DNA of 21,873 bases from Chlamydiota bacterium (lineage in GTDB: Bacteria > Chlamydiota > Chlamydiia > Chlamydiales > SM23-39), in contig JASFVE010000035.1 in NCBI GenBank assembly GCA_050049995.1, positions 1 through 21,873 on the forward strand, given 5' to 3'. Position 1 is the stretch's first letter. Every line of letters begins with the position of its first letter. A program made the position numbers and the translations under genes. Positions 3 through 15,308 of this stretch are shown piece after piece. Under the pieces are notes generated by a model. It was not told where the DNA came from. It made no database searches and saw only the letters and a list, made by a program, of their open reading frames with translations.

Positions 3-698
3 AACATTTCTGAAGAAAACTCATTAGAAAAACTTTCCTTAATGGAATGTCAAAGCCTTGAAGAAAGGTTCCTTGATGGTTTTTTTGAAAAATTAACTCA
101 TCTAAAAATAGCTGATTTAACCCAGACAAACATAATAGGAAGGTGTCTTACTCACATTTCATCGGAAAATCCATTGGAAGAACTTTCCTTAATAAGGTGC
201 AAAAGCCTTGACGAAAGCTGTTTTGCAGATGTTCTTTTACGAGCGAAGTATCTAAAAAAGCTTGATTTAACTAGTACAAATATAACGGGAGAGTGCCTTG
301 CTCACATTTCATCGGAAAATCAATTAGAAAATCTGATTTTAACTTTCTGTAGAAGGCTTGAAGAAAAGAATAAATTTTTTGCAGCATTTTTTTCAAAAGC
401 AACGCATCTAAAAGAGCTTTCCTTCTCTTTTACAAACATAACAGGAAAGTGTCTTGCTTACATTTCATCGGACAATCAATTAGAAGAGCTTTCCTTAATG
501 GAATGTCAAAGGTTAGAGGAAAGATATCTTGGTGATTTTTTTGAAAAAGCGATTCATTTAAATGAGCTCGATATATGCCATACAAACATAACGGGAATAT
601 CTTTTACCCGAGCGAAAAAAAATATAAGAAAAATTGCTGCTCTGGATGCTAATAAATTGAGAGGGAAATTCATACGAAAACTCCGAGAAAAGCACTAA
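3..698 (+). CDS. LRR protein of the F-box/LRR array, copy 1 (5'-partial; begins before the window)
   Basis: The frame of ORF 42..698 is open back to base 3 (NISEENSLEKLSLMEC...), so ATG42 is internal. Four xITGxC-anchored 50-aa LRR units lie in the window, followed by a non-repeat C-terminal cap (...KLRGKFIRKLREKH*). Confidence 0.9.
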   Translation, partial: NISEENSLEKLSLMECQSLEERFLDGFFEKLTHLKIADLTQTNIIGRCLTHISSENPLEELSLIRCKSLDESCFADVLLRAKYLKKLDLTSTNITGECLAHISSENQLENLILTFCRRLEEKNKFFAAFFSKATHLKELSFSFTNITGKCLAYISSDNQLEELSLMECQRLEERYLGDFFEKAIHLNELDICHTNITGISFTRAKKNIRKIAALDANKLRGKFIRKLREKH

Positions 699-716
699 TC
701 TGTAGTTATAAACTTG

Positions 717-750
717 AAGGAGAGTGGCTATACCATTCCTCCTTTGTTTG
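717..750 (+). terminator. Putative intrinsic terminator after copy 1
   Basis: Stem AAGGAG-AGTGG / CCATT-(C)-CTCCTT (717-744) around a CTATA loop, followed by TGTTTG. It starts 18 nt after the stop codon. Confidence 0.5.
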
Positions 751-796
751 AATAGAAGTTTACAGGTATCCTTAATGGGTATTTTTTTACGAGTTC

Positions 797-874
797 TTCT
801 AAAGATTGAAATTGTTATTTTTGCCCCTCTTCTTTTACTATTTTCGGCCTTGAATAATAGTTAACAATAAAAGG
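797..874 (+). promoter_or_regulatory. Conserved upstream cassette (sigma70/sigma66-like promoter + RBS), copy 2
   Basis: TTCTAAAGATTGAAA, then TTGTTA (812-817), 18-nt spacer, TACTAT (836-841), TTTCGGCCTT, and AAGG (871-874) before ATG879. The same layout recurs before other paralogs. Confidence 0.6.
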
Positions 875-13522: not shown

Positions 13523-13560
13523 AAGCGCGGATAGCTTTATTTATCAAGGGGGAAAAGAAA

Positions 13561-13630
13561 TTTAAATTGCTGTTTTTGACTATTTTCCTTTAATATTTTT
13601 GCCCTCGATTAACAACAAAAAAATAAAAGG
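13561..13630 (+). promoter_or_regulatory. Conserved upstream cassette, copy 9
   Basis: TTTAAA, TTGCTG (13567-13572), 18-nt spacer, TAATAT (13591-13596), TTTTGCCCT, and AAGG (13627-13630). Confidence 0.55.
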
Positions 13631-13634
13631 GCAC

Positions 13635-15308
13635 ATGACCATAACTACTACTACTACTTTAGCACTTCCACAAGATATTTGGGGTAAAGTAATATCTTTT
13701 TTACCCCCACAAGAACAACTAACTGATTGTCGGGTTTGTCAAACATGGCGAAGAGCTTTTGAAACAGATTTATGTAAGGTTTCTTTTATGCAATCTATTT
13801 CAAGTCTTACACTAAAAGAGATGGGCTTATTTCTTATGAAGAGTCCTAATCTTATAAATGGTTTAATTAATCAAAGATTTAATAAAACATTGAATCCTGG
13901 TTTTAAATTTACAAATGAGCTTCAGGCTAGGGCGATCGAATGTGAAATTTTTAATAAAAGGGTTAGTAGAGGATTAAACTATTTACGAGGTCTCACTTAT
14001 GAGGAACGACAAAAAGTCGAATCTTTAACTTTTAGATGTCTTTATGAGAATAATTTGTTTGGTGACCGACTTGTAGAAGTATTTATACTATGCCCTAACT
14101 TAAAATCTTTAACTCTTTTGGGCTCTCGAGCAACAGGCATAGAATTTACTCGAATTCCAAAGGACAATAAGCTAGAAAAGCTTGTATTACATCGCTGTGA
14201 TGATCTTAATGAAGGTTCCTTAAGGAATCTTTTTTTTTATGCGCCTCATTTAAAAGAAATTAATTTTTCTTATATAAAAAATATTACTGGAAGATTTCTA
14301 TCGCGAATTCCAGAGGACAATAAGCTAGAAAAGCTTGCATTACATCGCTGTGATAATCTTAGTGAAGCTTTCCTTATAACTTGTTTCTCAAAAGCTATCC
14401 ATCTAAAAGAGATAGATTTATCTAGAACAAATGCATCAGGAGTAGAGATTTCGCATCTCCCATTCAATAATCAGGTAAAAAGACTTGTTTTAGCATGTTG
14501 TAAAAACCTTAATGAAGCTTCTCTTGAAGAGTTTTTCAAAAAAGCGCCTCATTTAAAAGAGCTTAATTTATCTTTTACAAACATATCAGGGAAATCTCTT
14601 ACTAAAATCCTAATGTATGACAAGCTAGAAAAGCTTGTCTTAAACCACTGCGCAAAGATTAATGAAAGGTTTCTTACTGATCTTTTCTTGAACGCAGTTC
14701 ATTTACAAGAGTTAGATTTGTCATCTACAAATGTAACAGGAAGATCTTTAAGACATATTCCAGTGAAGAATAACCTATTAAAGCTTGCCTTAAGCAGCTG
14801 CGAAAGGATTAATGAAGAGTTTCTTATGGATCTTTTCTTGAACGCAGTTCATTTACAAGAGTTAGATTTGTCATCTACAAACATAACAGGGCTATCTTTA
14901 AGACATATTCCAGTGAAGAATAACCTATTAAAGCTTGCCTTAAGCCGCTGCATGGAGATTAATGAAAGGTTTCTTGCTGATCTTTTCTTAAAAGCAGTTC
15001 ATTTACAAGAGGTAGATTTGTCATCTACAAATATAACAGGACTATCTTTAAGACATATTCCAGTGAAAAACAACCTATTAAAGCTTGCCTTAAGCTACTG
15101 CATGGAGATTGATGAAAGGTTTCTTGCTGATCTTTTCTTAAAAGCAGTTCATTTACGAGAGTTAGATTTGTCATCGACAGATATAACGGGACTATCTTTT
15201 GTGCAAATCTCAAATAAAAATTGGATGCGTGCCTTAGGGGTAGCAAATTGCAAAAATCTTAGTAAGAGTTTTTTACAAAAATTTCCTAAAGAAATTTTAA
15301 ACCGATAG
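13635..15308 (+). CDS. F-box/LRR protein, copy 9 (557 aa)
   Basis: Start moved to ATG13635, which has AAGG upstream. F-box LPQDIWGKVISFLPPQEQLTDCRVCQTW; eight LRR units; cap NLSKSFLQKFPKEILNR. Confidence 0.9.
   Translation: MTITTTTTLALPQDIWGKVISFLPPQEQLTDCRVCQTWRRAFETDLCKVSFMQSISSLTLKEMGLFLMKSPNLINGLINQRFNKTLNPGFKFTNELQARAIECEIFNKRVSRGLNYLRGLTYEERQKVESLTFRCLYENNLFGDRLVEVFILCPNLKSLTLLGSRATGIEFTRIPKDNKLEKLVLHRCDDLNEGSLRNLFFYAPHLKEINFSYIKNITGRFLSRIPEDNKLEKLALHRCDNLSEAFLITCFSKAIHLKEIDLSRTNASGVEISHLPFNNQVKRLVLACCKNLNEASLEEFFKKAPHLKELNLSFTNISGKSLTKILMYDKLEKLVLNHCAKINERFLTDLFLNAVHLQELDLSSTNVTGRSLRHIPVKNNLLKLALSSCERINEEFLMDLFLNAVHLQELDLSSTNITGLSLRHIPVKNNLLKLALSRCMEINERFLADLFLKAVHLQEVDLSSTNITGLSLRHIPVKNNLLKLALSYCMEIDERFLADLFLKAVHLRELDLSSTDITGLSFVQISNKNWMRALGVANCKNLSKSFLQKFPKEILNR
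14631..15199 (+). repeat. Near-identical 150-bp tandem repeat (~3.8 units) in copy 9
   Basis: Units start at 14631, 14781, 14931 and 15081 (AAGCTTGYCTTAA...). CAGTGAARAAYAACCTATTA recurs at 14761, 14911 and 15061. Confidence 0.95.

Follow-up and report, generated by a model that had tools for sequence, protein, structure and literature searches.

A genome-wide family of candidate F-box/leucine-rich-repeat adaptors in an uncultured chlamydia, with a fast-evolving predicted target-binding face

Introduction

Gene families that combine an F-box with leucine-rich repeats (LRRs) have been described from chlamydiae. In the parts of PMC4209131 drawn on here, they reach up to 138 members, occur in tandem arrays with pseudogenes and little recombination, encode a conserved region of unknown fold between F-box and LRRs, and show purifying selection overall when tested globally and in pairs; in a surrogate assay, functional type III signals were found in members of comparable chlamydial families. 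Here we analyse nine paralogous loci of this general kind (g1 to g9, in order) on the plus strand at positions 3-15308 of a chlamydial contig. The window is the whole of that contig (C35 of assembly G000; 21,873 nucleotides, nt), in which the array was first noticed from the DNA letters alone (hereafter, the sequence-only reading).

Among described systems, NEX1a of Neochlamydia (Domman et al. [quoted passage not shown] Ralstonia GALA proteins, as presented in the portion of PMC2244805 used here, share a bacterial F-box joined to a solenoid of cysteine-containing (CC-type) LRRs and delivery as type III effectors. Eukaryotic FBXL2, FBXL17 and Skp2 are the closest solved sequences and folds.

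We consider it fairly probable that the array genes encode type III-secreted, SCF-recruiting adaptors directed at the host of an obligately host-associated chlamydia. An unstructured leader rich in Ser, Thr and Pro would act as the export signal for the type III system; the F-box, to judge by homology, would bind host Skp1 and thereby the Cul1-Rbx1 ligase; a helical linker would, according to a structural model, cap the solenoid and set its angle; and the concave face of the double LRRs would capture a host protein for ubiquitination.

Domain architecture of the array proteins

Residues 2-13, which cover the leader of about 10 residues, contain 40% Ser, Thr or Pro against 18% in 1100 other open reading frames (ORFs) (p 3e-23, with crude start calls), a composition suggestive, not diagnostic, of type III export. 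The F-box follows at about residues 11-42. A motif core, LP-x8-SFL-x4-Q-x5-V-x3-W, is present in all eight proteins with an N-terminal module, and the literal form of the motif given in the sequence-only reading in four. Pfam F-box models (PF00646/PF12937) match seven of the eight weakly, at E<=0.1, and PF00646 matches 34 of 73 family members at E<=0.01. A profile of the first 50 residues finds 17 PDB sequences at E<=10, every one of them an F-box protein, with a best E of 0.0011; among them are KDM2A/B and ECT2L, which we take to carry F-boxes. A model of g6 residues 1-300, built on 73 family sequences (pLDDT 93.3, pTM 0.90), places three helices within residues 13-41 in an F-box layout; a single-sequence fold of g3 (pLDDT 53) was discarded. 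The S-F-L residues, Q28 and W38 show a site ratio of non-synonymous to synonymous substitution rates (dN/dS) of <=0.04. Five positions have been named for Skp1 binding in Orientia Ank5 (in the part of PMC11401901 consulted); L and P are kept in eight of eight array proteins, and the Ile position is I or V in seven.

Between F-box and LRRs lies a helical linker of about 85 residues (residues ~45-128 in the g6 model), seen only in this family and kept in all its members; it had escaped the sequence-only reading. A structure-atlas search with the linker gave a best feature score of 0.83 with template-modelling (TM) scores <=0.44, which are leads only and no proof of a new fold. In some members part of the linker recurs as a second internal copy amid the LRRs (L043:4929-7205, L043:7330-9174, G000:C111:650-3082 and C28:23301-24725).

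The solenoid consists of 5-10 copies of a 50-residue unit, itself a 24-residue repeat plus a 26-residue CC-type repeat. The CC-type cysteine occurs in 49 of 55 well-registered units, seven of the 62 detected units having been excluded for indels or a short last unit. Every second repeat thus has the CC-type form (25-26 residues, LxxLxLxxCxxL, helix on the convex side), and the cysteine-containing LRRs of the sequence-only reading hold for this repeat but alternate with the 24-residue one. The best PDB sequence matches are FBXL2 (5.8e-31), FBXL17 and Skp2, with KDM2B also close and GALA chains among the matches (9j7j, E 1.5e-14). The best fold matches are FBXL2 (Foldseek 1.2e-8) and FBXL17 (Z 20.0, root-mean-square deviation 3.1, 238 aligned); these closest sequence and fold alignments are carried by the LRRs. 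The chlamydial context and F-box/LRR identity proposed from the letters are borne out. In P0025 and P0031, N-termini unrelated to the family's, which look BTB-like by eye but are not matched by the Pfam BTB model, are joined to a very similar double LRR of about 51 residues, which suggests a repeat type common to other adaptor families.

Rates of evolution along the protein

The concave face evolves about twice as fast as the convex one. Sites were assigned to concave, convex and core classes from LRR geometry in 28 genes of the array's clade (291 codons); these classes follow standard LRR geometry. A fixed-sites codon model gave, under F3x4/F61 codon frequencies, a dN/dS of 1.21/1.12 for the concave class, 0.65/0.61 for exposed convex sites, 0.42/0.38 for the F-box, 0.37/0.33 for the linker and 0.12 for the core (concave versus convex, p about 1e-13). 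The constant N-terminal end and variable solenoid foreseen in the sequence-only reading are recovered in these values. As a control, 95 neighbouring genes have a median dN/dS of 0.09. Pairwise estimates, with windows <40% identity dropped, rank the same way as the model; the concave class reached 1.95 in three looser pairs and 1.45 (confidence interval, CI, 1.20-1.76) in seven recent paralogue pairs. Per-class omega with free scale in IQ-TREE was not identifiable.

The adaptor reading and its alternatives

Several observations weigh against SCF-recruiting adaptors with a diversifying surface. Only g3 and g9 of the eight exceed the Pfam F-box cut-off, and g5 has no match. The best fold matches begin at model residue 39-40 and leave the F-box outside the comparison; the fold searches were filled by the LRR part. 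The acidic fourth F-box position, which is a Cul1 contact, is kept in four of eight array proteins, the Asp position carries Q or E throughout the eight, and the position after it, normally hydrophobic, is an invariant Gln in the eight (Q28, found in >=90% of 73 family members). The LP pair is lost in many members elsewhere in G000. For the concave face, dN/dS exceeds 1 significantly with just one of the two frequency models (p 0.013 versus 0.15), 11 clean orthologue pairs give 0.89 (CI 0.74-1.07), and conversion and repeat mis-registration can inflate the concave values. The putative identity of the N-terminal domain as an F-box, in degenerate form, is the weak step of the adaptor reading, and positive selection on the concave face is suggested, not proven.

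The degenerate domain leaves room for secreted LRR binders that act without SCF, in which a relic F-box fused to the linker serves as an N-cap or another dock and host targets are blocked or sequestered through the concave face. The near-invariance of Q28 while LP decays in other members would fit such binders, as would an F-box no more constrained than the linker (0.38-0.42 versus 0.33-0.37) and the retention in every member of a linker with no known relative; the uniform F-box character of the 17 PDB matches, the nearly frozen W38 and S-F-L and the three-helix layout of the model speak against them, and we regard this alternative as unlikely.

A bolder version of the adaptor reading is similarly doubtful: a genus-specific, antibody-like repertoire of 50-70 genes on about 5% of the genome, in which a constant head is combined with 150-nt double-LRR cassettes that are duplicated and exchanged by neighbouring genes, the concave face is in an arms race with host substrates, and a remodelled F-box with its invariant Gln and a new helical domain would dock non-canonically on the host ligase. 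If true, the family would offer a clear example of chlamydial effectors under diversifying selection on the concave face, as well as genomic evidence for life inside a eukaryote in this SM23-39 lineage.

A mostly non-adaptive expansion, with redundant copies arising by duplication and drift and fast concave sites merely unconstrained, would account for a concave dN/dS near the neutral expectation of 1, for the three of nine loci broken or truncated at the 3' end and for the two copies at the congener's locus against at least nine here; drift has been proposed for the Parachlamydiaceae families in the parts of PMC4209131 cited above. Yet purifying selection on the core codons is strong (0.12), exposed convex sites are constrained (0.6), many one-to-one orthologues persist across two species and the recent paralogue pairs give a concave value of 1.45, so that we judge it improbable as the main explanation; it concerns copy number and can coexist with the adaptor reading. 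Equally improbable are Skp1 decoys that bind Skp1 without an active ligase and titrate host F-box proteins, the LRRs setting localisation: the acidic position missing in four of eight proteins and the very high copy number are compatible with them, but they need neither a concave face twice as fast as the convex one nor dozens of different solenoids.

Organisation and history of the array

The nine loci are intronless and spaced 17-180 nt apart, and eight have a visible 5' end and N-terminal module, g1 being truncated by the contig start; the at least nine same-strand genes, the lack of introns and the eight 5' ends reported from the letters are all confirmed. A 150-nt repeat period runs through all array genes, the paralogues share 40-57% protein identity, and the array is followed by a convergent adenylate kinase gene and two large ORFs. 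The features are as follows.

3..698, plus strand: g1, 3' part of a family gene with about five double LRRs and the terminal cap, cut by the contig start
879..2108, plus strand: g2, F-box, linker and five double LRRs, ending abruptly without the cap repeat; 409 amino acids (aa)
2214..3737, plus strand: g3, F-box (over the Pfam cut-off), linker and seven double LRRs; 507 aa
3806..5800, plus strand: g4, F-box, linker and ten double LRRs; 664 aa
5923..7908, plus strand: g5, the F-box that is most degenerate (unmatched by Pfam F-box models at E 0.1), linker and ten double LRRs; 661 aa
7926..9551, plus strand: g6, F-box, linker and eight double LRRs; 541 aa; residues 1-300 modelled
7956..8051, plus strand: F-box of g6, residues 11-42, with modelled helices at 13-22, 25-34 and 36-41
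8058..8309, plus strand: family-specific helical linker of g6, residues ~45-128
9679..11226, plus strand: 5' ORF of g7, F-box, linker and seven double LRRs; repeat frame lost near 11,210
11208..11735, plus strand: 3' ORF of g7 in another frame, about three more double LRRs, no cap; frameshifted remainder
11364..11628, plus strand: tract shared by g7 and g8, with 92% identity to 13151-13415 of g8; probably a former gene conversion between these neighbours
11759..13522, plus strand: g8, F-box, linker and eight double LRRs; repeat register lost near 13,430; 587 aa
13635..15308, plus strand: g9, F-box (over the Pfam cut-off), linker and eight double LRRs; orthologue at the same place in the congeneric genome G401
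14630..15199, plus strand: three 150-nt units of g9 that are 86-95% identical to one another, from recent duplication within the gene
15431..16120, minus strand: adenylate kinase, a housekeeping gene that flanks the array in convergent orientation and anchors the synteny, outside the family

Three loci are thus broken or truncated at the 3' end, g7 by frameshift and g2 and g8 by absence of the terminal cap repeat; neither the split of g7 near 11,210 nor the uncapped ends had been recognised in the sequence-only reading. Contigs of a wetland metagenome run, X1, bridge all eight gene junctions without mismatch and at even depth, in pieces of up to 3.4 kb, although X1 is possibly the source sample of the assembly and hence not independent support. 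An assembly artefact was rejected for the array as a whole, given these contigs. The 3' ends of g2 and g8 are each bridged by an X1 contig. With an X1 contig end 5-8 nt away, the break in g7 has no proper bridge, but nothing in X1 contradicts it. X1 joints with sides of 21-35 nt between repeats were not counted as rearrangements.

Of the expression signals claimed earlier, an AGG-type ribosome site was found 5' of six of eight starts (a raw count without chance control), whereas a promoter scan of the window gave 30 sites against 48.6 +/- 8.2 in shuffles; neither promoters nor terminators exceeded the shuffle level in the window, and a tRNA scan of it found none. About 25-40 nt 5' of g2, g3, g4, g5 and g9 a loose shared element is seen (T-rich, GCC, then TAA-rich). 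Its strict form, a pattern picked after looking, precedes about 6 of 56 family genes and 14 of 1281 others, and it is probably upstream DNA copied along with the gene.

The family can be traced in these sequences to tandem duplication of whole genes plus upstream DNA, with repeat number altered by 150-nt duplications, occasional tract exchange between neighbours, and copies lost through frameshift or truncation in a birth-and-death pattern. Array paralogues differ at a synonymous divergence (dS) of 0.53-0.85 (28 pairs); the 95 neighbouring genes in common with G401 give 0.27. Most of the array is hence older than the species split, and copies were lost or relocated in the congener, where g9 alone has a clear orthologue (dS 0.26). 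Against L035:7111-8622, g9 (13635-15308) shows a dS of 0.26-0.33 and a dN of 0.34-0.39, a whole-gene dN/dS >=1 with the linker included. Many members elsewhere form one-to-one pairs across G000 and G401 (77 of 79 sequences analysed, two without an N-terminus having been dropped).

Exchange between neighbours has happened, but the active recombination proposed in the sequence-only reading goes beyond the data. The paralogues are old, and one exchange tract is clear, between the g7 tail and g8 (92% over 265 nt versus 64% in their N-terminal parts). A second g7/g8 tract covers 104 nt at 86%, and the first 732 aligned nt carry weak mosaic signals (run test p 0.02-0.045, PHI-like p 0.02-0.03). Duplication of 150-nt units within a gene is more frequent than exchange, with 35 stretches at >=85% family-wide and up to 95% in g9.

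Family size and distribution

Nor is the contiguous locus special: the family extends over the whole genome, and the array is its largest intact stretch. The family profile matched 74 ORFs on 30 contigs of G000, or 5.5% of the assembly, three of them doubtful and 24 cut by contig ends; 56 have the full N-terminal module. Small contigs (C92, C104, C77, C113, C114, C111 and C88) consist almost wholly of family genes, and overlaps of 127 nt between C104 and C92 and between C33 and C21 imply further multi-gene arrays. G401 has at least 23 members in the regions around matches that were covered; its contig G401:C5 and the record L022 appear to be one contig and were counted once. Between adenylate kinase and aconitase the congener has only two copies, against at least nine in G000. 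In G000 aconitase lies on C89, followed by another cut family member (G000:C89:6268-7020); in L022 it is aconitase that flanks the array. Since this cut member adjoins aconitase, the array probably continues over the gap in the assembly, and its genes may number more than nine; an exact contig-end overlap search did not join C35 to C89.

The family is apparently restricted to the genus. The full module was found in two of 103 genomes of the SM23-39 family, four others matching in the F-box part only. A 400-genome sample of the phylum gave a full-length match in G000 only and eight weak, partial ones (with a narrow profile, and G401 outside the sample). In a search of 1.84 billion representatives, 42 of the best 150 of 521 matches fit the linker profile; 39 of these are identical to G000 or G401 proteins and three are distant members. 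The latter (P0035, P0036 and P0049) have an F-box-like start, partial linker and LRRs and lie on contigs <3 kb; P0036 seemingly has two F-box-like stretches. A word-indexed protein search, a weak test, returned four proteins, all from G000. F-box genes as such are common in chlamydiae (55 of 103 SM23-39 family genomes, 64 of 73 in another family). A Skp1 domain was matched in none of 400 Chlamydiota genomes including G000, a search in which the control sequences gave no match either. Skp1 genes are known from giant viruses, and intronless full-length ones were seen on the viral-collection contigs L073, L079 and L085.

Genome and setting

Assembly G000 comprises 1.88 Mb in 122 contigs (34.9% GC, completeness rating 98%). 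The adenylate kinase is 89% identical to its counterpart in L022, a metagenome-assembled genome of Chlamydiae that the supplements of PMC8242063, as far as used here, place in the family SM23-39; in the same source the family consists of metagenome assemblies only, with the host not identified. Eukaryotic contamination was ruled out by this neighbour, whose chlamydial counterpart lies in the same gene arrangement, and is disfavoured by composition (family GC 33.9% versus 35.6% in other long ORFs).

A genome search of G000 found the type III export gate (the gate only) and four nucleotide-transporter matches, which together show a host-dependent genome. A tie to the strictly anaerobic, possibly host-free Anoxychlamydiales was unsupported by gene content: the two genomes searched gave no match to [FeFe] hydrogenase, pyruvate:ferredoxin oxidoreductase, arginine deiminase or COX1, and both have cytochrome bd.

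Beyond adenylate kinase the window holds two big paralogous ORFs on the minus strand (16202-19330 and 19493-21871; 1042 aa and at least 789 aa). They share 36% identity across 794 aa, begin with a Ser/Thr-rich stretch and lack any credible Pfam match. L022 carries a single counterpart (959 aa) beside adenylate kinase, and another fragment lies on C32. They are possibly another lineage-specific effector pair.

Comparison with known systems

Other chlamydiae already provide examples of the strategy, of F-box/LRR expansion, of tandem arrays and of birth-and-death, as the cited parts of PMC4209131 make plain, and the present family, from an uncultured organism, leaves the understanding of that strategy as it was. 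The suggestion that the family is undescribed held up in so far as it is apparently distinct from NEX1a-like proteins and no publication on it was found in the open literature, where only PMC4209131 was directly relevant; its tandem arrays and birth-and-death are published themes.

Seven NEX1a-like ORFs (from G152 and G052), picked by architecture and not by accession, were compared with the array; the first Parachlamydiaceae loci taken as NEX1a candidates had been set aside as F-box/WD40-like or other types. The array linker profiles match none of the seven, nor does the F-box profile. These ORFs have a 23-residue LRR period, against 24+26 in the array, and another linker, and no array protein has one of them in its three best BLASTP hits. 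NEX1a members average 77% similarity in the portion of PMC4209131 at hand, whereas array proteins share 40-57% identity. NEX1a is confined to Neochlamydia (Parachlamydiaceae), and the nearest named relative is listed under SM23-39. From its global and pairwise analyses PMC4209131 reports purifying selection; with sites tested by class, the array family shows a fast concave face.

In GALA, positive selection falls mainly on the convex side, according to the portion of PMC2244805 used, whereas in the array family the concave side is faster; the alternating 24+26 repeat and long linker are the array family's own, unlike GALA. Eukaryotic FBXL proteins are 13-21% identical when structurally aligned, and the array proteins differ in about 85 extra helical residues before the first LRR and in the degenerate F-box.

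Other chlamydial LRR expansions (F-box plus 25-26-residue LRRs in G282; G271 and G437) similarly join an adaptor domain or similar N-terminus to CC-like LRRs, often in tandem, and BTB-LRR proteins in G052/G152 have a PEX1-like architecture with CC-like LRRs. They match the array family in the LRR or F-box part only, and none tested has the linker. L003, L012, L015 and L017 of G282 form a multi-copy F-box and CC-LRR family of their own with a different linker.

The array family thus appears to work like NEX1a and GALA but is not NEX1a, as judged through the architecture-picked ORFs. It adds an independent F-box/LRR expansion outside Parachlamydiaceae, and this SM23-39 expansion lends support to the view that chlamydiae have converged more than once on the ubiquitin system of their hosts. 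Its fast concave face and frozen core offer a testable handle on the question of adaptation versus drift raised in the cited parts of PMC4209131. What is new relative to the described families is a separate expansion with a predicted target-binding surface that changes unusually fast.

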